DNA from: Acinetobacter phage nACB2
DNA length: 64,000 nt
Direction: 5' to 3' (one strand)
Sequence record: OQ032512.1
Made by a program: the position numbers and the translations under genes. Shown here one piece after another: positions 1,922 to 45,053 of this stretch (position 1 is the first letter of the stretch; each line of letters begins with the position of its first letter). The notes beneath the pieces are model-generated. The model searched no databases, was not told where the DNA came from, and was given only the letters and a program-made list of their open reading frames with translations.

Positions 1922-2890
1922 ATGTCAACAGTTGTAGCTGCAAATCCTGAACATTTTCTTTGGTGTGAAAAATATCGCCCTGACACTTTAGAGCAAACCA
2001 TCTTGCCAGCTTCATTTAAAGCTGCACTACAAAAAAGTGTTCAAGATGCTAAGATGCCTTCTTTCATCTTCTTTTCTCCAAGTCCTGGTACTGGTAAGAC
2101 AACTACAGCTTTAGCTCTGTGTCATGACCTGAAATGCGAAAAGTTGTTCATCAATGGTTCTACAGACAACTCTATTGACACCATTCGTAACTTGGTTACT
2201 CAGTTTGCTACCACTGCCTCTTTATTCTCAGATGCGCCTATCAAAGTAGTTGTACTAGACGAGGCAGACCGTTTATCACCAGCTGCTCAAGACGGTTTGA
2301 AAGCCCTGATTGAAGAAGTATCTAAAAACTGTTCATTCATTTTAACTTGTAACAACAAAGCGCGTCTCATTGATCCATTGCGCTCACGCTGTACAGAAAT
2401 TGATTTCATCTACACCAAAGAACAGCAGGTGGAATTAGCAACCTTGATGCTAAAACGCGTGATTGAAATTCTTAAATTAGAAGGCATTGAGCATGACGTA
2501 AAAACTCTAGCTGCCTTAACAAAAGCGTGTGTGCCTGATAACCGTAAATTGATTCATACTGTTCAAGAATACGTGCGTCAATACGGTAAAGTGGACGCTG
2601 GTGTATTAGCTCTACATAATTCACGCGATACCAAAGTGTTCGTAGACATTCTACGCGCTAAAAACTTCGACCCTGCTCTTAAATGGTGTCTAGACAATTC
2701 AGATGCGATCGGCGATGACTTCTACCGTTTCATCTATGATTCTCTGAAAGATGATCTAACAGATCAATCTCGTGCTCAGATCATTATTACTCTGAATGAT
2801 TACCAACGTCATCATGCCACCGTTCCAGACCGCTTCTTACATTTAAGCGCTATGGCTACTCAAATCATGATGGAATCGCAGTTTAAATAA
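1922..2890 (+). CDS. 44: Clamp loader large subunit (T4 gp44, AAA+)
   Basis: Walker A SPSPGTGKTT, Walker B VVLDEADR, sensor SRC. Clear similarity to T4 gp44. Confidence 0.85.
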   Translation: MSTVVAANPEHFLWCEKYRPDTLEQTILPASFKAALQKSVQDAKMPSFIFFSPSPGTGKTTTALALCHDLKCEKLFINGSTDNSIDTIRNLVTQFATTASLFSDAPIKVVVLDEADRLSPAAQDGLKALIEEVSKNCSFILTCNNKARLIDPLRSRCTEIDFIYTKEQQVELATLMLKRVIEILKLEGIEHDVKTLAALTKACVPDNRKLIHTVQEYVRQYGKVDAGVLALHNSRDTKVFVDILRAKNFDPALKWCLDNSDAIGDDFYRFIYDSLKDDLTDQSRAQIIITLNDYQRHHATVPDRFLHLSAMATQIMMESQFK

Positions 2891-2994
2891 TGGGTTGCTG
2901 GTACGCCTGTCTCAAGTGCCCTTGTGTATGGGTGTTTTACCAACTTGTAGATGGGCGTTGTCCTATTTGTAAAGGTAATGTGAAGGAGATATAG

Positions 2995-3429
2995 ATGATG
3001 ACCTCTGAAGTCGCAGCTAGTAAAGAGAAAAAATTTGGATTGTTTGATATTCTGAACAATATCAATTCTGGAAAGGATCGCAGCCTATTCTTTCAATCAA
3101 ATTATGAAAAGGAATACAACCCTTTCATGATCAATCGTTCTTTGATGCAGAATCAACGTACAATTATGATTGCTCAGGCAGCTAATCAGGCGGTATTGAT
3201 TGATAAAGAAATGCATCATGATTATATGATGTCAACCATCAAAAAGAACAACTCTCGCGCCAAATGGAAAAAGCGAGATGACAAAAGTGAATACCTTGAA
3301 TGCGTGAAGCAATTCTATAAGGTAAACGAAAAAGTTGCTTTACAATACTTGAAAATCCTTACGATTGACGAATGTAAGGTATTATTAAAAAAGTTTGATA
3401 AAGGCGGTAAAGCTGGACGTGGTAAATGA
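2995..3429 (+). CDS. 62: Probable clamp loader small subunit (gp62 position)
   Basis: Called only by synteny between gp44 and regA. The sequence is divergent. Confidence 0.4.
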   Translation: MMTSEVAASKEKKFGLFDILNNINSGKDRSLFFQSNYEKEYNPFMINRSLMQNQRTIMIAQAANQAVLIDKEMHHDYMMSTIKKNNSRAKWKKRDDKSEYLECVKQFYKVNEKVALQYLKILTIDECKVLLKKFDKGGKAGRGK

Positions 3430-3430
3430 T

Positions 3431-3892
3431 ATGAAAAAATTAGCAGACATTCTTGTAGAACGACCATTGGGTGCAGATATTCTTCCGTACTGCGTGGAGA
3501 TTAACCCTGAAGTTGACGGCAACAATAACTTCAACCGCATTCGTGAAACGTTGAAACGCGTTGGTATTCAAAGCGCTTCTCATTCTAACACACTAAATCA
3601 ATCATGTCATATTTTCTTCCATGAAGGCAAATATTACTTGATGCACTTCTTGATGATGTTTATGTTTGATGGTCATCAGTCTAAACTAGATGAAGATGAC
3701 ATCAAGCGCACTCAATGTGTAGCCTATATGTTAGAGCAATGGGGATTATGCACCATTGTTAATAAAGAAGTTCTTGAAAAACCAAGTGAAGAACGTTTTA
3801 TGCACGGTCTGCGCGTAGTCAAATATCGTGATTCTAACAACTGGACATTCCGTTCTATTTACAAAATGCGCAAGGAAACGCCTAATGGCTGA
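3431..3892 (+). CDS. regA: RegA translational repressor
   Basis: RETLKRVGI...QSCHIFFHEGKYYLMHF...DGHQ...EDD...WGLCTIV aligns with T4 RegA. ATG at 3431 is in frame with the track ORF 3395..3892. Confidence 0.75.
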   Translation: MKKLADILVERPLGADILPYCVEINPEVDGNNNFNRIRETLKRVGIQSASHSNTLNQSCHIFFHEGKYYLMHFLMMFMFDGHQSKLDEDDIKRTQCVAYMLEQWGLCTIVNKEVLEKPSEERFMHGLRVVKYRDSNNWTFRSIYKMRKETPNG

Positions 3893-4778
3893 TTTATATC
3901 AACCGTTGTTACCACGATGGTTAAACTATTGCCACGCCATGGTCACTACGCTTGATTTAGACCCTGTCTATAGTGGCATGCGCGGTGCGTTCTTGTCTCA
4001 AGAGATAACAAGAGACCAATTCGACAACTTCATGGTTAGCTTCGCTCTTTTATATTCTTTAGAAGAAAGCTGTAAGATTGTTGAGATGAATCTTCCTACA
4101 AATGAATTGTGGAAGTATCTCATTGATAACTATGAGACATTGAAGCGCGGACGAGCAAGACGGTTCTTCCGTGAAAAGAAGGGAATGAACTGTCTCAACT
4201 ATCTTGTTGAACATTTTGAAACTTCTACTCAGTTTATTGAAGAAATGTATGATCCATGTTATGAAAAGATGGCTGAGAAGTTTGCTAAAGTTCCATCTTT
4301 TGGTCCATACTTCACTTGGAAGTGGTTAGATTTATATGACCGCGTATACGGTATGGAGTGTAAAATCACTCTAGACTACGCCGTACAAAATCTACCAGGA
4401 GCTCCGATCAAAGGCGCTAAACTAGTGTCTTCAGAACTTTGGCCAGAAGATGAGTTTGAACTCAAACGCGTTCTACAGCATATGATTCAAGAATGTCAAC
4501 GCGTTGGTCTTATGGCACCACCTTCGCTAGACCGTTTGGTAGACATTCAAGAGATTGAGACGTGTTTATGCGGCATTGTACATATGTACAAAGGCACACA
4601 TGTTGATAAAATAGGTAAAGACTTGAGAAGCAAGTATGAAGAGGTCTATAAAGTGGGTAAAACCGCTGGTTGGCTTTTGAAACACATGCCGAGACCTCTA
4701 CCTCATGACATTGAATTTAATGATCCGTACCTGAAAGTTGAAGATTCGTCTTCATCATTCAACCTATTAGACCTGTAG
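3885..4778 (+). CDS. Hypothetical ~300-aa protein, paralog A of 7991..8956; candidate DNA base-modification enzyme (aGPT-Pplase-like?)
   Basis: Shared motif block FGPYFTWKWLDLYD versus WGGFMAYELVTDL. Lies in the hydroxymethylase/kinase neighbourhood. Start taken at MADLYQPLL. Confidence 0.35.
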   Translation: MADLYQPLLPRWLNYCHAMVTTLDLDPVYSGMRGAFLSQEITRDQFDNFMVSFALLYSLEESCKIVEMNLPTNELWKYLIDNYETLKRGRARRFFREKKGMNCLNYLVEHFETSTQFIEEMYDPCYEKMAEKFAKVPSFGPYFTWKWLDLYDRVYGMECKITLDYAVQNLPGAPIKGAKLVSSELWPEDEFELKRVLQHMIQECQRVGLMAPPSLDRLVDIQEIETCLCGIVHMYKGTHVDKIGKDLRSKYEEVYKVGKTAGWLLKHMPRPLPHDIEFNDPYLKVEDSSSSFNLLDL

Positions 4779-4833
4779 ATTATAGGGATAAGACTTGAAG
4801 AAGAAAATATTTCGGAAAAAGTTAAAATTTTTC

Positions 4834-4863
4834 CTTTACTTCTTCAAGTAATAATTCAATAAT
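4834..4863 (+). promoter_or_regulatory. Early promoter CTTTAC-N18-AATAAT (weaker -10)
   Basis: Same architecture as the other early promoters. Confidence 0.35.
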
Positions 4864-4939
4864 AGTAATCATGAAAGGCAAGGTACAAAATCAAAACCAA
4901 GCCTCAATTGATAAATTAACGCTCAACGGAGTAAACCAA

Positions 4940-5635
4940 ATGAAAGCTATTCTTAAACACATCGCGGATTCAACTGTAACTGTTACAATCGACAACCTTA
5001 CTCTTGAAACTTCTAAAGAAGTTGCTAAGACTCTACGTGTAGATAACTCACTAGATATTACTGCTGCGACATTAAATCGCATCATCAAAAACAAAAAATC
5101 TTCTGCTGGTTTCAACCTTGAAGTTGACGGCGAAATGTACCCTTGGTCAGACCGCGATATCAAAGTATTCGGTATCACAGAAGCAATTCAACCTTCTTTC
5201 GAAAATATCTCTCAAATCGTAGCTGAAGAAGCAGTACAACCAGTTGTTGAAGCTGTAGCTGCGGTAGCTGAAGTTATTGTAGAAAAAGAAGAAACTGAAG
5301 ATGCAGATGATCTTACAGCTGGAGAAGGCGTGAACTGGATGCGTCGTAACCCTAAAGGTCCTCAAGAACTTCTGAAAGTTCGTAAAAGCTCAAAAGTTTG
5401 GGAAATTATTGTAGCTCTCAAAAAACGCCGTATGACTCTCAAAGAATTACAAGAAACGTTATATGCTGTTGGTCTTGATGAAGATCAGATTGATGATTAC
5501 AAAGTTATTCAAGCAATGTATGATGTTATGTGGAAAGGTTACAACATCGCTAAAATTACATGTGCAGACGGTGAAGTGCGCTACGCTATCCGTACACTAG
5601 ACTTCAAAAAAGTTGACTCAATCTTAACTTACTAA
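4940..5635 (+). CDS. Hypothetical early protein with an acidic central linker
   Basis: Start chosen at the ATG preceded by the conserved leader CTCAACGGAGTAAACCAA. Confidence 0.5.
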   Translation: MKAILKHIADSTVTVTIDNLTLETSKEVAKTLRVDNSLDITAATLNRIIKNKKSSAGFNLEVDGEMYPWSDRDIKVFGITEAIQPSFENISQIVAEEAVQPVVEAVAAVAEVIVEKEETEDADDLTAGEGVNWMRRNPKGPQELLKVRKSSKVWEIIVALKKRRMTLKELQETLYAVGLDEDQIDDYKVIQAMYDVMWKGYNIAKITCADGEVRYAIRTLDFKKVDSILTY

Positions 5636-9036: not shown

Positions 9037-10149
9037 ATGCAACCGCCTATGTTTATTACAGGACTAACAATTAATCAGACTGTTGGACGCGCTATCACCT
9101 CTATTATGCGTATGGGTAAAGAAATTGAAACTCGAAACGGTACAGCCAAATTTCTAAATGATATCACTTTGGAAATTCAAAACCCACGCGAGCGCCACCT
9201 TTCTCTAACTGGACGCAAAAGTAACATCTTCCAATTGATGGCTGAATCTTTTTGGGTTATGGCTGGACAAGATCAAGTTACAGGATTTCTAGAATTTTAT
9301 CTGCCTCGTGCTACAGATTATTCTGATGACGGCGCTCATTGGCACGGAGCTTATGGCCCACGTATATATGATCATGGTCAGATGGATGACTTGATTGAGA
9401 CCTTCCGTTCCGAAGGTAAAAATACACGCCGTGCTATTTTGATGATCGCTAACCCAATGCAAGATAATCTAACGACTATTCAACGCTTGTATGGCGAAGG
9501 TCATAAACCAAAAGACATTCCATGTAACCGCGAAATTCATTTTTATGTTACGGACAATAAGTTGAATTGTAAAGTTATTCAGCGTTCCGGCGATATGATT
9601 TTCGGTACTGGTTCAATCAATCCGTTTGAATTCACCTTCTTACAAGAAATCATCTATCAGCGTCTGTTGAAGTTACAAGGTTTTGAAGACCTAGAATTGG
9701 GTGTATACCGCTGGCACGTTACAAATGCTCATATCTATTCAAATTACTATCTTCAAGCTGAAGATGTAATGAAACACTTCGATGACGATAAAGAGCACGT
9801 TGAAGGTACTTTGCCTGTAGCTTATCCATTTACTAAAGAAATGTTTGCTCATAAGTTGAGTTCCCTGAACGAAATCATCGCTTGTGATAACGTAGAGCAT
9901 CTACGCGCTCTCGTCAACCATTACCCATTTGGTAAGTTCAATGAAATTATTGAATTGTATTATGTTCTAATCAAAGCATATACTTTGGGTAAAAAGATTA
10001 AAGAATTGCTTCCTGATCAGAAATTAGTCTTGAATATCTCTAGTATTCCAGATTCTTTAGCAGCTGCTATCGAAGGCTCAGCCTTCAAAAACTTTGATAT
10101 TAACTATGATACAGAAAGCGTATCTTTCCATCTTGTGGAGACAAAATAA
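9037..10149 (+). CDS. Thymidylate-synthase-family pyrimidine hydroxymethylase (dUMP/dCMP hydroxymethylase-like) with a C-terminal extension
   Basis: RRAILMIANP, PCNREIHFYV and IQRSGDMIFG correspond to the TS motifs RRxIxxxWNP, PCHxxxQFYV and QRSxD. His-to-Asn after the catalytic Cys as in T4 gp42. Confidence 0.7.
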   Translation: MQPPMFITGLTINQTVGRAITSIMRMGKEIETRNGTAKFLNDITLEIQNPRERHLSLTGRKSNIFQLMAESFWVMAGQDQVTGFLEFYLPRATDYSDDGAHWHGAYGPRIYDHGQMDDLIETFRSEGKNTRRAILMIANPMQDNLTTIQRLYGEGHKPKDIPCNREIHFYVTDNKLNCKVIQRSGDMIFGTGSINPFEFTFLQEIIYQRLLKLQGFEDLELGVYRWHVTNAHIYSNYYLQAEDVMKHFDDDKEHVEGTLPVAYPFTKEMFAHKLSSLNEIIACDNVEHLRALVNHYPFGKFNEIIELYYVLIKAYTLGKKIKELLPDQKLVLNISSIPDSLAAAIEGSAFKNFDINYDTESVSFHLVETK

Positions 10150-11321
10150 TGGGTCAACTCATCGTTCTATGCGGTGAACGCGGTGTGGGGAAAGATTTCC
10201 TCACATCAGCTGTAGCTGAACAAATGGCTAAATCTGGTATTAACGTCACACGTCTTTCTTTTAGTGATGAAGTGCGTCGCGTGGCATACGTGTTGTTCCC
10301 ATTTCTAAAGAATGTTTTGAATGACAATAAGAATGACCCAATTATCGGCAACTTAGACAATCCTAAAGAGTTTTCTTGGCGAGATATCATTAAGATGATA
10401 GGAAAGGTCTGTCGAGACGTCGATAGCTCTTATTTCGCCAAACGTTGGTCTGAGAATCAATCTCATCTAGTTCTAGAAAGTCCGTCAAATGATTTATTCT
10501 TCATCACGGATATGCGCACTCAAGATGAATACGATCTATTACGCAAAACAGCTCATACATTTGATAGTATTTTGTTTGTAAAAATTGAATCCGAAACAGG
10601 TTTACCTCCGGATGATTTTGAAAAGTGGACGCGCGAATTTAGTGATTACGACGTTCTGTTTAAGAATCTTCGTGATGAAAAATCTGTGGCTGATTTTATT
10701 AGCGCCTTGAATCTTAATGTTGGGATGCCTACGCGTCTAAACAAAAAGATGCTGAATACAATGTTAGAAATTCAGAATCGCAACAACGCACTCTATCTAG
10801 GAACAACAGACTGGCGTCAAAAGGCTGATCTACACAAATACTGCGCTGCCGCTGAGCGCGAGTTCTCTGAATTTCTAGATGAGATCACTACAGAGTGGGC
10901 TTGGTGGAAGAAAGGTGAACAACAATTTGATGTAAACAAAGCCGTTGTGGAATTTTGTGACTACATCTGCTTTAAGATGTCTGTACTATTGTTGAAATAT
11001 CCAGATTTTCAAGGCGTAAACGATGATGCTTACTTTGAACCGCGCGAAAGTATTAAAAACGTGGGGTTCGCCATTTGGTACGAGACCATCAAAACCAAGG
11101 GTATGTCTTATCTTCAGTATACGCCGTATGTAGCAATGGACTTCCAACGTCTAATGGAAGAAATTAATATCACACTTGATTATTTTAATATTACAGCAGA
11201 ACAGTTTTATAATACTATGTTGCAGGTTCTGGAACGTAATTCAGAACGCGCAGAAAAAATCTCTCAGGGCTTATTAGTAAATAAAGCAGCTGAAAATGAA
11301 ATCACTACGGTAGAGGAATAA
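10149..11321 (+). CDS. Fusion of dNMP kinase (T4 gp1-like) with an all-alpha NTP pyrophosphatase (MazG/gp56-like)
   Basis: N-terminus LIVLCGERGVGKDF resembles T4 gp1 MKLIFLSGVKRSGKDT. C-terminus EFSEFLDEI...VVEFCDYICFKM fits the MazG E-x-x-E / E-x-x-D motif. Confidence 0.6.
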   Translation: MGQLIVLCGERGVGKDFLTSAVAEQMAKSGINVTRLSFSDEVRRVAYVLFPFLKNVLNDNKNDPIIGNLDNPKEFSWRDIIKMIGKVCRDVDSSYFAKRWSENQSHLVLESPSNDLFFITDMRTQDEYDLLRKTAHTFDSILFVKIESETGLPPDDFEKWTREFSDYDVLFKNLRDEKSVADFISALNLNVGMPTRLNKKMLNTMLEIQNRNNALYLGTTDWRQKADLHKYCAAAEREFSEFLDEITTEWAWWKKGEQQFDVNKAVVEFCDYICFKMSVLLLKYPDFQGVNDDAYFEPRESIKNVGFAIWYETIKTKGMSYLQYTPYVAMDFQRLMEEINITLDYFNITAEQFYNTMLQVLERNSERAEKISQGLLVNKAAENEITTVEE

Positions 11322-11323
11322 AC

Positions 11324-12403
11324 ATGTCGTCATTAGCATCACGCCTTATCAAAGCAGCTCCAAAATCAAAAGCATGCATCGTGAACCAAACCGATATTGG
11401 TGAAAAGACCATGTTGGCTAAATACATTATTCCTCTTATGAACCTGATGTTTAGCGGTTCATTCAACGGCGGTCTTTGCTTTGGTATTCATCAGCTTGTA
11501 GGTGACTCGCGTACCTTTAAAACCAACATGGCGGTAATGATGGCCAAAGGTTATATGGATCATAATAAAGATTATGACCCAAATGACTTAGAAAAGCAGC
11601 CTGTTTTAGTTGTATTCGACTCTGAATTTGCAATCCGTCCGACATTGGAACAGTTTGGTATTCCACCTGAGCAAGTCGTATACATTCCATTTGAAAATCT
11701 GGAAGAATTGAAAGAAACACTCACTCAGATTATCCAAGACGTCAAACGCGGTGAAAAGGTATTCTTCCTAATTGATTCAATCTCTCAGGTTGCTTCTATT
11801 AAAGAAGTTGCTGACGCATTGAAAGGTGACGTGAAGGTAGATATGACGCGCGCCAAAGAAATGAACTCTTTGTTCCGTATCATCACTCCTATGTTAGCAA
11901 TTCGCGATCTTCCTCTTGTTGCTATTAACAGCTTCTATGAAGACAATGCTAATCAGTATGCAGACCCAATTATTAAAGGCGGTAAACAGAACTTCCTTTC
12001 ATCCGATATTATTTGGTTTGTTTCTCGTGCCCAAGATAAAGATGATGATGGTTTGAAAGGTTGGTTCTTCAACTATAAAGCCCTGAAACACCGTTTTGTG
12101 AAAGAGAAGTCAGTATTCAAACTACACGTGACATTCGATGGTGGTATTGATTGGGCTTCGGGTTTGATTGAATTAGGCGTTGAATCTAAACTGATCAAAC
12201 AGGCTGGTGCGTGGTATGAATTGGCTGATGAATTAAAAACGCCTAATCTCAGCAAAAAGTTCCAACGCAAGCAAATTGTGAACAAGGGTGAATCTGGTTT
12301 CCTTGAAGCACTTTTAGCGTCACCTAAATTTCATGAATTCTGTGAAGACAAATACCGCCTTGAAAATGGTGAGATGGTATCTGAAGATTTAGTTGAAGCG
12401 TAA
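11324..12403 (+). CDS. uvsX: UvsX recombinase (RecA family)
   Basis: SRLIKA..., LVVFDSEF, GEKVFFLIDSI and MTRAKEMNSLFRIITP align with T4 UvsX. Confidence 0.85.
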   Translation: MSSLASRLIKAAPKSKACIVNQTDIGEKTMLAKYIIPLMNLMFSGSFNGGLCFGIHQLVGDSRTFKTNMAVMMAKGYMDHNKDYDPNDLEKQPVLVVFDSEFAIRPTLEQFGIPPEQVVYIPFENLEELKETLTQIIQDVKRGEKVFFLIDSISQVASIKEVADALKGDVKVDMTRAKEMNSLFRIITPMLAIRDLPLVAINSFYEDNANQYADPIIKGGKQNFLSSDIIWFVSRAQDKDDDGLKGWFFNYKALKHRFVKEKSVFKLHVTFDGGIDWASGLIELGVESKLIKQAGAWYELADELKTPNLSKKFQRKQIVNKGESGFLEALLASPKFHEFCEDKYRLENGEMVSEDLVEA

Positions 12404-12415
12404 GTGATATAACGA

Positions 12416-12440
12416 TGGGGGCGCAAGCCCCTATCTTTTC
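12416..12440 (+). terminator. Hairpin GGGGC-gcaa-GCCCC with a T-tract
   Basis: Read from the sequence. Confidence 0.5.
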
Positions 12441-12452
12441 GGGGAAAATGGA

Positions 12453-13868
12453 ATGCAATTTGAAAATTTATTGTTGAGTACTTTGATTTACGCACCTCAG
12501 TTCGCGAACAAAGTAATCAATTTTATTGAACCTGATTATTTTACGGATATTGGCCAACGTAATACTTTCAAACTAATCAATCATTTTTACAAAAAATACA
12601 AAGCGCCACCGACTAAGGACGCTTTGCTTATTAACCTAAGCAATACCAATCTACCTGAAGCCATCTATGATCCTACTAGCGTAGCTATTCAGATGCTTTA
12701 TATGCCAGAAGATGAAATCAGTAATCTAGATTGGACATTTGATGAAACTGAAAAGTGGGCTCAAGAACGCGCTTTGTATATTGCTATGTCTACATCTCTG
12801 GCTGTGATGAACGGTGAAGACAGTAGCATTTCAAAGACAGGTATTCCTTCTATGATTCAGAAGGCGCTCGCAATACGTTTTGACCAATCTATTGGTCATG
12901 ACTATATTGATGACGCTCAGAAGCAGTGGGAGTATTATCAGAATCCAGCTAGTAAGATTCCTTACAAACTTGAGTGTATGAATAAAGTCACTCAAGGCGG
13001 TAATACGCGTAAAACTCTATCCATTGTTCAGGCAGGTATCAACGTAGGTAAAACTACATGGATGCTGAATATGGCTGCCGACTATGCTAAGCAAGGTCTA
13101 GACGGTATCTATTTTACACTAGAAATTGCCGAAGAAGTCCTACGCGAGCGTTTGGATGTACGTTTGTTCGGAGAGAATTCTGAACAGATCAGAGCGCACG
13201 ATTCTTTTGCCTATTTGAACCGCGTTAAAAAGATCAAAGATGAAAATTTTGGTCGAGTTGTAGTAAAACAGTTCGCGGCATCTTCTGCTCACGTTGGCCA
13301 CCTACGTCATGTGTGTCAAGAATTTGAGGTCAAACATGGTAAAAAGCCAGACTTCATCATGGTGGATTACCTTACACTATTGAACTCATCTGTACTCCAC
13401 CCTAGTACAAAGAGTGACTCGAACACGTACTTTACCAACGTAGCTGAGGAACTACGCGGTTTAATGATTGAGATGGATGCTATTGGTTGGTCAGCGCAAC
13501 AGTTCAACCGTTCTGGACAAGATGAAAAGGATCCTAAGTTGTCTAACTCAGGCTTATCTATTGGCGTTCAGGCTACTGCTGACTTTACATTGGCTCTAGT
13601 ATCACCTAATGAGCTGAAACAACAGGGTAAAGCAATTGGCATTGTTCTGAAAAACCGTTTTGCTAACAAGATGCATATTCCTAAGTTTGCGCTTGGTATT
13701 AATGACGATCTACAGATATTCTTTGACTTGCCTGAAGGCGAAGAATATAAAGACGTTTCTGATCGCATGGACGAGCAGATTCAAGAAGCCATGGCTCATG
13801 TAGATGCTACAGCAGCTAAAAAGACTCAAACTAAGACAATGAACATATCAGAATTGAATTTTGGTTAG
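12453..13868 (+). CDS. 41: Replicative DNA helicase gp41 (DnaB family)
   Basis: 471 aa, Walker A GINVGKTT, DnaB-like layout. Confidence 0.8.
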   Translation: MQFENLLLSTLIYAPQFANKVINFIEPDYFTDIGQRNTFKLINHFYKKYKAPPTKDALLINLSNTNLPEAIYDPTSVAIQMLYMPEDEISNLDWTFDETEKWAQERALYIAMSTSLAVMNGEDSSISKTGIPSMIQKALAIRFDQSIGHDYIDDAQKQWEYYQNPASKIPYKLECMNKVTQGGNTRKTLSIVQAGINVGKTTWMLNMAADYAKQGLDGIYFTLEIAEEVLRERLDVRLFGENSEQIRAHDSFAYLNRVKKIKDENFGRVVVKQFAASSAHVGHLRHVCQEFEVKHGKKPDFIMVDYLTLLNSSVLHPSTKSDSNTYFTNVAEELRGLMIEMDAIGWSAQQFNRSGQDEKDPKLSNSGLSIGVQATADFTLALVSPNELKQQGKAIGIVLKNRFANKMHIPKFALGINDDLQIFFDLPEGEEYKDVSDRMDEQIQEAMAHVDATAAKKTQTKTMNISELNFG

Positions 13869-13950
13869 GTCTTAAACTTTCAGTAATAATTGTTCCAATG
13901 TAAATAGATGTAAAGTTTTTACATTGGAACTTACTGAGAGGCACTACTCC

Positions 13951-41135: not shown

Positions 41136-42615
41136 CTAGAATAGGGAGTCAAGGCTGAACGATGTCGGAGCCTTTGCCTCCCAATTTATTGCTGTTAAAA
41201 AGTTAGTCAAAGGCGAAATGAAGCACTTATTGAATGCTGTTTCTTTATCAATAAACTGATCAAGTTTGAACTCCTTCGGCAATTGATCATCATATGATAT
41301 TACTTCCATACCGAAAGGCGAACCCTTCCGTAATGGTAACACAAAATATTTATTCCCGCTACGAAGTGGCATGATATGTGTCACTTCCAACCGTTTCAAT
41401 AGATTGTTATGGTTCACTGCGCCTTTAACGTGATAAGGTGTACCCTTTACGTAATTACCGCTACTATCTAGATAGTCTTCAATGTTGTTGATATTTTGAG
41501 CAGCGCCGTACTCATTAATATCTCGATCCTTTTTGAAGTCTGTTTCACAAGCGTCAACAAACTGATGCATCTCAGTCATTCGATCATTCAACGCAAATTC
41601 ATAACACTTCTTCATCCAATCTCGACAGAACATTGGGTAGTTTGATTTACGCGCTTCTAAGCCAACAATCTTCAGCTTAGGAGACGCGAATCGAACGCCT
41701 TCATTATCTGTTAATAGCATAGCGTATCTTTTCTTAGTAGTAAAGATGGCAACTGTAGAAATCGCTTCTCGCTTAAAGAAAAGAGCATTGATTGGGCAGT
41801 TATATGAAGCAGCTAGTTCTTCAGCCCATTGGATGAATAGTGGTTCAAGAACGTCTTTAGCGAGTTCATCAAGTTTGTCAGTTTTAGCTTCAACAGACAA
41901 CTTATCCCAACCTTCGGCTTTCACCACTTCTTTAAATTCAACGTACACAGAGTCTGTATCACCGTAGAAACAGTGATCACCTGATAGACCGTATTTGTTA
42001 TTGATCCATTCGTTCAAGCGGAACATGATATGACGCGTTGAACATTGTCCAGCTGTAGTAATTGCTTCTGCAATACGAATATCAAAGTGGTCAGCAAAGT
42101 TTTCATTCGCAATCGCGCCGTAACCAGCGTTGGCAGCAATTTTATGCGAGTGTTGGTTTGAATCGCCGTTCTGAATGATTGTTTCCCATTCATCCTTCTG
42201 CTTATAGAACCCTGCGTCCTTCTCTAGACATTCATCAAGATATTTTTTCTTGATAGATTCTAAAGAGCGTTCATCATTCTTCATTTGACGTTTAATCGCA
42301 GAACGCGTGTCGTACAAGTCTTTGAATACGCGACGTAACAGAGATGGACGCTCAATCTTGAACATGGCTAAGTTTGGAGCCATACAAACTTTAAGGCGCT
42401 TGAGTACTTGGAAATCATATGGGCGTTCAAAATATACATCCCAAATGCCTTGACGAGCACGGAAGCGTTCAGCGTACAAACGTGTATATTTGTCTTGTTG
42501 GTCTTCAGGTAAAGATTCCAATTCTTTTGCTAGTGCATCTAGAATCTGTTCTGTAATAGCCCAAGGAATCAAGGTCTCAACGCCCATATTGAACTGTTGC
42601 GCCATGTGTGGATAT
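41136..42615 (-). CDS. 43: DNA polymerase gp43, exon 2 (motif A YP onward, motif C YGDTDS, C-terminus)
   Basis: YPHMAQQFNMGVETL aligns with T4 gp43 YPSIIRQVNISPETI. YGDTDSVYV present. The first 57 aa of the 549-aa track ORF are intron sequence. Confidence 0.8.
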
Positions 42616-43788
42616 CCTTTATGTTCAGATGAGTTCGTGATTCTCATCCCGGAATTGTATCCAGCTTGTATTCGCATACAAGAGCAGACTATATCATCAC
42701 CCACGTTATACGTTTGGTACGCTGTTGTAACTAGCGCAGATGAGCTATACTCACCGTGTCTCCCGTTTCCAATTAAGCCATACATTTAGGCACCACACTT
42801 GGCTGTACTATGTCTTGCGACTGTCTAGTCGTTGAACCTTTCAGAACTTCTTTGATCTTTAGTGTATACAGTTCTACATCTAAACCTTTTAATTTCAATG
42901 GCTTGACGTAGTTAGATGCTAGTGTTCCGTTTTGGTTGAAGATTGTTTTGCCTTTCGCTTGAGCCTTCAGATAGTAAGCAAACAATTGTTCGTCAGACCA
43001 TCCAATGATTTCAAGTTTCTTGCGTTCAAGACTTTCTTTGAATTTTTGCTTTCCATCTTCTGATTGCATCGGGTTAGATTGTTCAAACCCTTTACCATCT
43101 AGATGATGTTTCAATTCGCCAGAAATATATCTTGGATCATTCTTTTCAGTCATAAATGTATTACCGTCTGAGTCTTTAACAACAACTCGTCCAGTCATGT
43201 ATTCTTGACTACGTTTAGTGATGCTTTTAGCAGTTTCTTCATCAGCCCCAAAGAACTTTTTACCGTTCATATCGGGTCTAGAAACACCGCGTTTAGTCTC
43301 ACTAATCTTCAACTTCACATCTTCGCGCTTAGATGGATTGTTCTCACCTGAGTTCATTACGCTAGCATTCAATCTAGCTTCAACGGTATACTCAGCGCCA
43401 TCTCTAGTTGTTGTCATTAAGTGATACGCAAATCCCATACCTCGAGTTTTTGCGCCTAACATCAATAATCTATGCGCTTCGACGTGTTCTAAAATAGATA
43501 AATCTATCAGATTCCACTTAGCATTTCTGTATTCATAAAAATCGCAGACTGGAAGAATATGATGACACTCTGTTACGCCATAACCTTTAGCAGACAAAAT
43601 GAATTCCACGTACTGTTCTAGTACAGCGTGGTCACCATTCTTGTAAGTCTGTTTCAAAGCATCTAGCATTTGTAAAGCGTTCATATAATTCACCATTCTG
43701 ACTTGGCTGCTGATTGTCTCAGTGAGAGTTCCCAGCAATTAAAGAGATTTTCATTGTATTATTACTAATACAAGCCCCTTATCAGTTA
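42616..43788 (-). mobile_element. Group I self-splicing intron (1173 nt) carrying an HNH homing-endonuclease ORF in P6
   Basis: P1 is exon GCCCU paired with IGS GGGGC, with U.G at the 5' splice site. P2 is UUGUAUUA-GUAA-UAAUACAA. Elements P (AAUUGCUGGGAA), Q (AAUCAGCAG), R (GACUA) and S (GAUAUAGUC, + strand 42687-42695). P9 is cuuguau-GCGA-auacaag. Terminal G at 42616. Splicing joins ...DANAL|YPHM... in frame. Confidence 0.75.
42773..43696 (-). CDS. HNH homing endonuclease (intron-encoded)
   Basis: ECHHILPVCDFYEYRNAKWNLIDLSILEHVEAHRLL. ATG MVNYMNALQ immediately follows element Q. Confidence 0.7.
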   Translation of the reverse strand: MVNYMNALQMLDALKQTYKNGDHAVLEQYVEFILSAKGYGVTECHHILPVCDFYEYRNAKWNLIDLSILEHVEAHRLLMLGAKTRGMGFAYHLMTTTRDGAEYTVEARLNASVMNSGENNPSKREDVKLKISETKRGVSRPDMNGKKFFGADEETAKSITKRSQEYMTGRVVVKDSDGNTFMTEKNDPRYISGELKHHLDGKGFEQSNPMQSEDGKQKFKESLERKKLEIIGWSDEQLFAYYLKAQAKGKTIFNQNGTLASNYVKPLKLKGLDVELYTLKIKEVLKGSTTRQSQDIVQPSVVPKCMA

Positions 43789-45053
43789 AGGGCATTAGCA
43801 TCCACTGAAACCACGTCTTCGTACCGTCCTGGCTTCAAATCTTTAACGTATCCGCCAGCGTAATCAGGCTTAGAATTCACGCGCGCACGAATTTCAGAAT
43901 ATTCTTTGCCGCGTGCTCCATAGCCGTACATCAAGTATTGCCAAGGAAGTACTGTCGCATTTGTGTCGTCTGGATTACAATGGAATAAGAAAGCCAGCGT
44001 ATATGCCAGTTGTAACATCTTAGTCTTTTCGGCAATGCGCTTAACTAAGTTCACGTCATGAATGTTGTATGAGATGTAGTTCTGGAAGTCTTTGTAATAG
44101 AATTCAGTCAGGTTTTTATAATCGCTATGGTCAACCTTTTCTTCACCCAAGAAGTGTTTTGCGGCTGTGTTTAGCTTTTTGTTATCCAATTCTACAAAGG
44201 CGTGTTTGTCAACGATGTCTTTCAAATCGAGGTTGCTGATACCTGCAATGTTGAAAGTCACTTCTTCGCCATAAGGTCCTTGGAAGGTACGCTTGCGCAC
44301 GTAATCTAGTGGAGAAATGCGTTTGAGCTGATCTCGTCCAAGAAGGGCGTCAATACGGTTACAGAAATATGCAATATCAAACGTGTCGCTGTTCCACCCT
44401 GAAATATAGTTGTATTCGGCATCTGCGAAATGATCAACAAAATCTGCAAGTAAGTCTAGCTCAGAGTCATAACCAACATATTCAATTTGTTCTGGCGTGA
44501 TATGTTTAGCTACTTCAGGCGGTAACTTTTCTACATCGAAAGTACCAATATATTCGCCCTTGAACGTCTCAAGACCAAATACAAAGAATTTATTTGTAAA
44601 TGTGTCATAAACCGTGATGGCTGTGACTTCGTATTGAGCTAGAGCAGGCTCAGGGAATGGGCCACTAAAGATAACGCCTTTTGCGTCTTTATAACCAGAC
44701 TCAACCTCAATATCCAGAAGCGCGCCGCGGATATGTTTCATATCAAACGTAATCTGCTTTTCAGGATAACGTTCAGCCACATATTGAGCTAGAGGGTTGT
44801 CAATGCCGTAGATTTTGTAGTTAGGAACGTTCTTCATTTCATCTAACCATTGATCCATGGCATAGATGTTATCAAAAGTCACAGCCTGTAAGGGTAGACC
44901 ACCTAGAGAACGGTGTTCAGATTCTTGATCTTGAGATGGTACAAATAACTTGGGCTTGAAATGAATTTCTGAAGTACCACGTACGCCATTTTCTACGTAG
45001 CGCTCAATGATTTTTTCTTTATGCTTGGTTAGTGAAGTGTAAAAACGAGACAT
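43789..45053 (-). CDS. 43: DNA polymerase gp43, exon 1 (3'-5' exonuclease domain through the start of motif A)
   Basis: Exo I FDIEV. Ends ...VSVDANAL, equivalent to T4 ...MSFDLTSL. Confidence 0.8.

Follow-up and report, generated by a model that had tools for sequence, protein, structure and literature searches.

The stretch of DNA considered here, a window of 64,000 nucleotides (nt) from Acinetobacter phage nACB2 (OQ032512.1), carries a family B DNA polymerase gene whose two halves are separated by an insert of 1173 nt (43788..42616), which we read as a group I intron with an endonuclease gene inside it. Coordinates are positions in this window unless another sequence is named, and the element lies on the minus strand, as do its parts and both polymerase halves. 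The upstream half appears in the list of open reading frames (ORFs) as 45053..43782, 423 amino acids (aa) ending in ...VSVDANALN; its reading frame enters the insert for two codons and then meets a UGA stop. Exon 1 proper (43789..45053) holds the N-terminal and exonuclease part of the polymerase as far as D-A-N-A plus the CU of the motif A Leu codon, and matches Pfam DNA_pol_B_exo1 (E 5e-12) as well as positions 6-407 of the 856-position PHROG profile phrog_262 (E 2e-102). Exon 2 (41136..42615) runs from the third base of that Leu codon through YPHMAQQ to the stop codon and supplies the palm, fingers and thumb part (phrog_262 408-851, E 7e-117; Pfam DNA_pol_B, E 7e-12). It is contained in an ORF of 549 aa (42785..41136) in which 57 residues precede YPHMAQQ, the sequence from residue 58 being YPHMAQQFNMGVETL. 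The third listed ORF, 43738..42773 with 321 aa, lies inside the insert. The original prediction, made from the sequence of this DNA, had proposed a polymerase split by 1173 nt at this place, and the layout, the end of exon 1 and the 57 extra residues all bear it out.

Removal of the insert, with ...GCC CU joined to A UAU CCA..., yields a stop-free frame of 914 aa reading ...VSVDANALYPHMAQQFN..., and the predicted ligated exon junction is ...AAUGCCCU|AUAUCCAC.... Within motif A (D-x-x-x-L-Y-P) of the family B polymerase, the insertion point separates the second base of the Leu codon from the third. That this predicted junction is the right one follows from several alignments. The two exons abut exactly on the DNA polymerase profile phrog_262 (407|408). 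Further, a 122-aa peptide spanning the junction matches without a break in about 250 phage records, including cyanophage gp43, Ralstonia RSP15 and Aeromonas and Vibrio phages, and a 173-aa junction-spanning peptide aligns over motif A of solved family B polymerases (vsvdanalyphm versus VSLDFRSLYPSI in Deep Vent; residues 384-431 of RB69 gp43). Excision of the insert restores motif A in frame, as had been proposed.

The insert begins with UAAC, ends with a G at 42616 and contains the parts of an IA-type group I intron, P1 to P10 together with P7.1 and P7.2, identified through covariance-model matches, covariation and helices shared across clades. Its ribozyme comes in two segments, one from P1 to the 5' strand of P6a (43695..43793) and the other from P6a' to the terminal G (42616..42847). 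P1 is formed by exon GCCCU(U) at 43793-43788 and the internal guide sequence AGGGGC at 43779-43774, which occupies intron positions 10-15; the U.G pair at the cut site is invariant in four of four sequences, and P1 is kept in three different exon contexts. P2 (43773-43754) has a GUAA loop, and the P element (43740-43729) and the Q element (43715-43707) can be read in the sequence. The helices of the core are P3 (43747-43742, with P3' at 42764-42759), P4 (43738-43733/43712-43707), P5 (43727-43717) and P6 (43706-43705, with P6' at 42838-42837), and P6a (43701-43695, with P6a' at 42847-42841) encloses the internal ORF. On the far side of the ORF lie R/J6-7 and P7 (42837-42826), P7.1 with a GCAA loop (42821-42812), P7.2 (42804-42776), an expanded P8 region of three hairpins (42755-42703), S/P7' (42695-42687), P9 with a GCGA loop (42682-42665), P9.1 (42662-42651) and P9.2 (42648-42628). 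P7.1 and P7.2 follow the 5' strand of P7 and precede P3', the arrangement of subgroup IA; P7.1 reads GUC-GCAA-GAC in the window and UCCC-GCAA-GGGA in L014, a 68%-identity relative on a wastewater contig from ENA. P1, P2 with its GNRA loop, the P, Q, R and S elements, the GCGA loop of P9 and the terminal G all sit where the original prediction had put them. An alternative 3' splice site directly after P9, as used in the short introns of a 208-kb contig described below, was rejected; it is out of frame and reaches a UGA. By eye, UGAACA at 42627-42622, just 3' of P9.2, was noticed to be complementary to GUUCA at 42837-42833 in J6/7. CUGAACA is kept shortly before the 3' splice site in both the Acinetobacter clade and the clade of Salmonella phage SeF6a, and the two strands might form a long-range pairing or a P9.0-like element.

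A permissive Rfam search found the group I intron family RF00028 on either side of the internal ORF, on the correct strand and in the right order. One half match (43798-43570; 34.9 bits, E 7e-7, local search) covers P1 to P6 and the other (42986-42665; 28.5 bits, E 6e-5) covers R, S and P9; no other Rfam family reaches E<=0.05 anywhere in the 64 kb.

The RNA has been conserved more strongly than the genes around it. SH-Ab 15599, the sole close relative found in the phage collection by megablast (75.5% identity), carries the same 1173-nt insert, and its non-coding intron segments are 90.5% (5') and 90.4% (3') identical to those of the window; the adjacent exon flanks stand at 67% and 78% and the ORF at 73%. 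Pairing was assessed in an alignment of the ORF-deleted window, L017, SH-Ab 15599 and L014, on which 73 pairs in 14 helices were imposed with P7 treated as a pseudoknot. Standard pairs fill 99.7% of the 292 cells, against 38-44% once the 3' partners are slid by 1-3 columns. Both sides have changed in 14 of the 73 pairs, a count that shuffles (3.5±1.6) reached in none of 500 trials and slid controls (0-2) did not approach. These compensatory changes are located in P2, P6a, the first two hairpins of the P8 region, P9, P9.1 and P9.2, while P1, P3, P4, P5, P6 and P7 are fully complementary yet nearly or fully invariant among the four sequences. Since a MAFFT alignment of all three clades misaligned P3', the P7.x helices and P8, the formal pair count was kept to the within-clade alignment and the comparison across clades was made with an explicit table of strands. 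By that table, which covers 10 introns of 3 clades, P2, P3, P6a, P7.2, P8 and P9 each occur in 4-9 sequence versions and are fully paired but for a single mismatch, in L005E (P8); P7.2 has 5 versions and is paired in all 10, and GNRA loops cap P2 and P9 in every intron. P10, between the first four bases of exon 2 and the four bases 5' of GGGGC, also covaries among the Acinetobacter-type copies (xUAU/AUAx, UUAU/AUAG, CUAC/GUAG).

The ORF in the loop of P6a probably starts at AUG 43684, which is conserved in all copies and preceded by GGUGA; the in-frame upstream AUG at 43696 is absent in SH-Ab 15599. Read from 43684, it spans 42773..43684 and encodes 303 aa. Its place inside P6, part of the original prediction, is secured by the covariation of the enclosing P6a helix, whose strands are UCAGAAU/GUUCUGA in the window, UUAGAAU/AUUCUAA in L014 and CUAGAAU/AUUCUAG in L018. 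At its 3' end the ORF runs into the ribozyme, the last 75 nt (42847-42773) being also P6a', P6', J6/7, P7, P7.1 and P7.2, with the UAA at 42775-42773 immediately 3' of the P7.2 stem. The stop is located elsewhere in SH-Ab 15599, L014 and the SeF6a type. Further, the invariant core GGUUCAACGACUA is translated as K-G-S-T-T in the Acinetobacter type and as K-V-Q-R-L in the SeF6a type, and as the two clades read GGUUCAACGACUA in different frames, its conservation must be imposed by the RNA.

The ORF product appears to be a Mob-type HNH homing endonuclease. It matches phrog_12434 'HNH endonuclease' (E 1e-62) and phrog_655 'homing endonuclease' (E 7e-17), and tblastn with its N-terminal half finds genes labelled 'Mob-like', 'HNH' or 'homing endonuclease' in T-even-like phages. 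The His-Asn-His signature E-C-HH-ILP...W-N-L...EH-V-EAH-RLL is kept in 13 of 15 aligned homologs, namely those having this N-terminal region, with distant NUMOD3-bearing proteins among them; the consensus across homologs is E-x-HH-I-L/V-P ... N-L ... EH-x-EAHR-L-L. An AlphaFold2 model of low overall confidence (predicted local distance difference test score, pLDDT, 64) has a strand at 41-45, a strand at 62-66 and a helix at 67-81, with pLDDT 60-76 there. Searches with the ORF protein returned further copies at 98, 85, 75, 69 and 68% identity, full length and intact in every case, and wherever flanking genes could be read, the copy separates the exonuclease half of a PolB gene from its polymerase half. 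A scan for promoters and terminators gave nothing above shuffles at the insert, where the sole 'terminator' is the P1 hairpin, and identified neither a hairpin sequestering the ribosome-binding site nor a late promoter for the ORF. As a separate observation, a related Mob-like endonuclease adjoins or overlaps the annotated DNA polymerase of the T4-like Acinetobacter phage AC4 (OL770262, 46795-47076), and may be another polymerase-associated homing element.

Relatives of the element occur well outside the Acinetobacter phages. Salmonella phage SeF6a has an endonuclease about 40% identical to that of the window in a homologous intron of 1183 nt at exactly the same codon, the junction being ...E-D-L-N-S-L(CU|) ... 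(|A)UAU CCA = Y-P-H-I. Dickeya phage LIMEstone1 has a counterpart of the SeF6a element, at 96% identity, that is annotated as 'I-LimII: putative intron' within 'putative DNA polymerase gp43', and this type is found in 33 phage records (19 Dickeya, 9 Salmonella and 5 Escherichia) of the Ackermannviridae, for example SeF6a, allotria and CRW-SP2. When the SeF6a junction is spliced computationally (200 + 200 nt), the product is found unbroken, at 89-96.5% identity, in 163 of the 170 matching Kuttervirus records. The predicted ligated sequence is thus a natural allele, and the element has the sporadic distribution expected of homing. At the corresponding place in SH-Ab 15599, the annotation gives DNA polymerase / hypothetical protein / DNA polymerase, and the papers searched on SH-Ab 15599 or nACB2 mention neither an intron nor a split polymerase.

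Taken together, the insert is very probably a group I intron of the phage IA type, self-splicing and mobile, situated in motif A of a family B polymerase gene; the restored junction, the RF00028 halves, the roughly 90% conservation of the RNA and the 14 compensatory pairs all support the group I interpretation first put forward for it. The intron would work as follows. Ribosomes on exon 1 of the precursor RNA would halt at the UGA two codons into the intron. P1 would form between GCCCU at the exon end and GGGGC of the guide; the P3-P9 core would make the guanosine-binding site, from which an external guanosine would attack the U.G splice site. Next, the freed exon 1 would attack just past the G that ends the intron (42616) while the short P10 holds exon 2, and ligation (...GCC CU|A UAU CCA...) would give the mRNA for one polymerase of 914 aa. 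The 303-aa endonuclease would be translated independently from the ORF in the P6a loop and, during co-infection, would presumably nick or cut, near the same site, polymerase alleles that lack the intron, which repair would then copy into them; the intron-less target sequence across the predicted junction is ...GAUGCUAAUGCCCUAUAUCCACACAUGGCG.... As the ORF shares its last 75 nt with the ribozyme core, translation and ribozyme folding on one RNA molecule should exclude each other.

A number of points weigh against this reading or against parts of it. An Rfam search of the intact 64-kb window at the gathering score (50 bits) gave 0 matches. The proposed identification by covariance model consists of two significant half matches on the correct strand, neither of which reaches the gathering score, presumably because an ORF of 847 nt sits in the P6a loop. 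An ORF-less relative with nearly the same core (P3-P6), at 12922-13175 of a 208-kb contig from IMG/VR, scores 92 bits against the gathering score of 50, and the ORF-carrying twin at 10429-11062 of that contig gives just a 37-bit match of its 3' half in the stretch searched, below threshold like the window. P4, P5, P6 and P7 are invariant among the compared sequences and so furnish no covariation evidence; how exactly the expanded P8 region and the window-type P7.2 fold is uncertain, and one pair of the third P8 hairpin is broken in L014. P10 has only 3-4 base pairs (bp), in a register that is not consistent in the SeF6a clade. For the endonuclease, the PHROG families, the conserved motif and the annotated Mob-like homologs speak for the HNH assignment of the original prediction, but Pfam (E<=10) and NCBIfam gave no HNH match, single-sequence phmmer and profile searches of PDB sequences gave none of any kind, and Foldseek with the low-confidence AlphaFold2 model gave a best E of 0.65 against PDB. 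Vacant sites for gp43 were found in the sister clade but not for the Acinetobacter-type polymerase: megablast of the phage collection returned SH-Ab 15599 alone, itself with the intron, a search of viral contigs for an intron-less allele found a near-identical contig alone, and a degenerate DNA pattern for unbroken D-A-N-A-L-Y-P-H-M-A-Q-Q had 0 matches in metagenome contigs. Mobility within the Acinetobacter lineage itself is therefore putative. Finally, catalytic splicing, the activity and target of the endonuclease, homing and regulation are all deduced from sequence.

The same observations bear on what else the insert could be. One can imagine that a former intron or endonuclease cassette is simply retained, without splicing, and that two polypeptides make up the enzyme, as with the split 43A/43B polymerases of Aeromonas phages 25 and 44RR. 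The N-terminal one would have 423 aa, and translation of the C-terminal one would begin at AUG 42785 or at the AUG within ...YPH-M-AQQ. Two-subunit gp43 enzymes are documented (Petrov 2010, as summarised in PMC2988022), and GenBank entries for SH-Ab 15599 and many Ackermannviridae call the polymerase as two or three separate 'DNA polymerase' coding sequences. The exon 2 frame, moreover, stays open for 57-82 codons upstream into the intron in the window, L017, SH-Ab 15599 and L014, all four Acinetobacter-type copies (at least 16 codons in SeF6a), and AAGGA stands 9 nt upstream of the YPHM AUG. However, AAGGA is not kept, being UAGG in SH-Ab 15599 and UAAG in L014, and the upstream extension changes almost exclusively by non-synonymous substitution and so shows no protein-level selection: synonymous to non-synonymous counts are 1:8, 2:9 and 2:18 in the intron tail read in the exon 2 frame, compared with 30:9, 24:20 and 22:29 in exon 2 and 37:11 and 30:17 in exon 1. 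The open frame may be due to chance plus strong conservation of the RNA, and the 549-aa ORF is, as had been suggested, partly read-through of the intron. The split would also fall within motif A, between the strand of the catalytic Asp and L-Y-P, at a codon through which the intron-less alleles of the sister clade read uninterrupted. A dead intron would not show a ribozyme under stronger purifying and compensatory selection than its exons. A polymerase that is split without splicing is improbable.

Somewhat more credit, though still little, is due to an intron that splices but does not move, its endonuclease ORF being an inactive or domesticated passenger inherited only vertically in the Acinetobacter lineage. 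The intron is present in all five Acinetobacter-type copies found, no vacant site turned up in any collection searched, the Pfam HNH domain was not detected in the ORF, and inactive intron endonucleases are known, such as the truncated I-TevIII of T4 (PMC2988022). Against this, no copy of the ORF is truncated or broken (68-98% aa identity), the HH...N...H signature is kept out to distant NUMOD3-bearing homologs, and the sporadic distribution in the sister clade indicates recent mobility of the family; the argument that all copies carry the intron rests, further, on 5 sequences of the Acinetobacter lineage. A free-standing endonuclease gene between two polymerase cistrons, without a ribozyme, can hardly be entertained, even if free-standing HNH or mob genes are commoner than intron-borne ones in T4-like phages (PMC2988022), for significant RF00028 matches on both sides of the ORF and covarying helices rule out a version with no ribozyme. 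An intein, considered along with it and just as implausible, was rejected on the UGA two codons into the insert and on the different frame of the ORF. A mobile self-splicing intron remains the favoured explanation.

Some features of related loci were recorded in passing. A 38-nt P4-P6 pattern with one free position has an exact match in an unrelated viral contig of 208 kb (IMGVR_UViG_3300031555_003522), the contig already cited for its ORF-less and ORF-carrying introns. Its DNA polymerase gene (10001-13900) is broken by at least 5 group I introns within about 3.3 kb, the polymerase pieces matching positions 66-144, 161-295 and 510-698 of phrog_2927, and four of the introns score above the Rfam gathering score (94, 76, 88 and 92 bits). 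Two of the introns in this gene (10429-11062 and 12922-13175) share the core of the window intron, and in the former the P6a loop, here closed by a perfect helix of 10 bp, likewise holds an ORF (125 aa), which matched no PHROG family. In LIMEstone1, the 'I-LimIII' locus (4100-4942 of the sequence examined) has a second homing endonuclease gene (phrog_655, E 1e-45), which lies between two further polymerase fragments, ORF180 and ORF182, but on the opposite strand. Possibly an intron holds an ORF in antisense there, or a free-standing insertion has split the gene outright, and the published 'intron' label is open to question. In L014, the polymerase upstream of the intron (2635-3906) is called as two ORFs of 115 aa and 302 aa, which could reflect an extra split, a frameshift or an assembly error. 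Near the polymerase of relatives lie genes for an HMUD2-family protein (SeF6a; L016:8138-8885) and an Orn/DAP/Arg decarboxylase (L014:8130-8882).

A wider reading is offered tentatively, as somewhat less probable than its contrary. The window intron could be one instance of a promiscuous ribozyme chassis that changes only its guide sequence between sites and swaps its cargo independently, with a scope comprising the Acinetobacter phage lineage, the enterobacterial Ackermannviridae and the uncultivated phage of about 208 kb, unrelated phages in all of which the P4-P6 core fits the 38-nt pattern exactly. The two copies of the latter sit at two different polymerase sites, one without an ORF and the other with an unrelated ORF of 125 aa. 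Under the same proposal, the two HNH clades would have extended their ORFs into the core independently, in different frames and to different stops, giving 'core creep' a natural replicate, and the endonuclease of the Acinetobacter lineage may face hypermodified-thymine DNA, since the DNA of SH-Ab 15599 is reported to carry the hypermodified thymine dapT (PMC13458397). If the window phage also modifies thymine, its intron endonuclease must act on modified DNA.

More immediately, the element extends an annotated but uncharacterised intron family to the Acinetobacter phage lineage, which is of phage-therapy interest. Annotation is affected as well. SH-Ab 15599 and dozens of Ackermannviridae genomes deposit two or three 'DNA polymerase' coding sequences plus a 'hypothetical protein', where on the intron reading the correct product is one spliced polymerase of about 914 aa and a homing endonuclease. 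The element further presents a clean natural case of an endonuclease ORF that overlaps the ribozyme core by 75 nt, the frame differing between sister clades. As a mobile element it is of an ordinary kind, and no concept is changed by it.

Ever since T4 and SPO1, phage replication genes have been known to harbour mobile group I introns in their catalytic motifs. The polymerases of SPO1 and of cyanophage Pf-WMP3 belong to family A (T7/PolA-like) and not to family B. Both genes have an HNH endonuclease in a group I intron (I-HmuI and, in a group IA2 intron, I-PfoP3I; PMC3073962, PMC3428280), although the ORF lies in P8 with a 9-nt overlap in SPO1 (PMC3073962), compared with P6a and 75 nt in the window; the window ORF had no sequence match to any PDB chain, I-HmuI included if present in the PDB copy searched. 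The T4 td and nrdB introns of group IA2 (I-TevI; I-TevIII of RB3) resemble the window in having the ORF looped out of P6 with its 3' end over P6a/P7, an in-frame stop just inside the intron, and a conserved, catalytically critical site in a gene of nucleotide metabolism. I-TevIII is an HNH enzyme (PMC2988022), as the window ORF product appears to be, unlike I-TevI, which is of the GIY-YIG type, and the T4 introns reside in thymidylate synthase and ribonucleotide reductase genes, whereas that of the window is in a DNA polymerase gene. An in-frame stop just past the 5' splice site is the rule among phage group I introns, and ORFs are known to overlap the core ('core creep'), by 20 nt in T4 td and 56 nt in B. 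thuringiensis nrdF (PMC3073962). The window intron fits this published layout in both its early stop and its 3' overlap, the latter at 75 nt against 20 nt in td.

Among T4-type family B polymerases, gene 43 of Aeromonas phages 25 and 44RR has also been invaded by a group I intron and a homing endonuclease. There, as summarised in PMC2988022 (Petrov, Ratnayaka & Karam 2010), an untranslated spacer divides the gene outright into the cistrons 43A and 43B, the endonuclease is free-standing and of the seg-type GIY-YIG class, and the intron of 43B has no ORF; the window has a single composite element of intron and HNH gene in motif A and no other split. I-LimII of LIMEstone1 (HE600015; Adriaenssens et al. 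2012, PMC3296691) interrupts the same gene after the same CU of the motif A Leu codon, with exon 2 beginning (A)UAUCC. The LIMEstone1 paper derived its three introns from gene order alone, without RNA structure or splicing data, and its Table 1 places I-LimII under GIY-YIG (PMC3296691); to the 2012 'putative intron' call the present analysis adds the RNA structure, splice sites and covariation evidence that it lacked. Although I-LimII (L019:2642-3520) is listed as GIY-YIG, its close SeF6a/Salmonella homologs were seen to have an HNH-type HH...N...H signature and to align with the window ORF. The I-LimII family and the window share identical P, Q, R and S elements and P4-P7, and an endonuclease about 40% identical in the P6a loop whose 3' end enters the core. 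They differ in the sequence and size of P2, P6a, P7.1/P7.2, P8 and P9.1, and the I-LimII-type ORF reads the core in another frame and stops elsewhere; the window type is set apart by its three-hairpin P8 region, its short P7.1 and its host, an Acinetobacter phage group.

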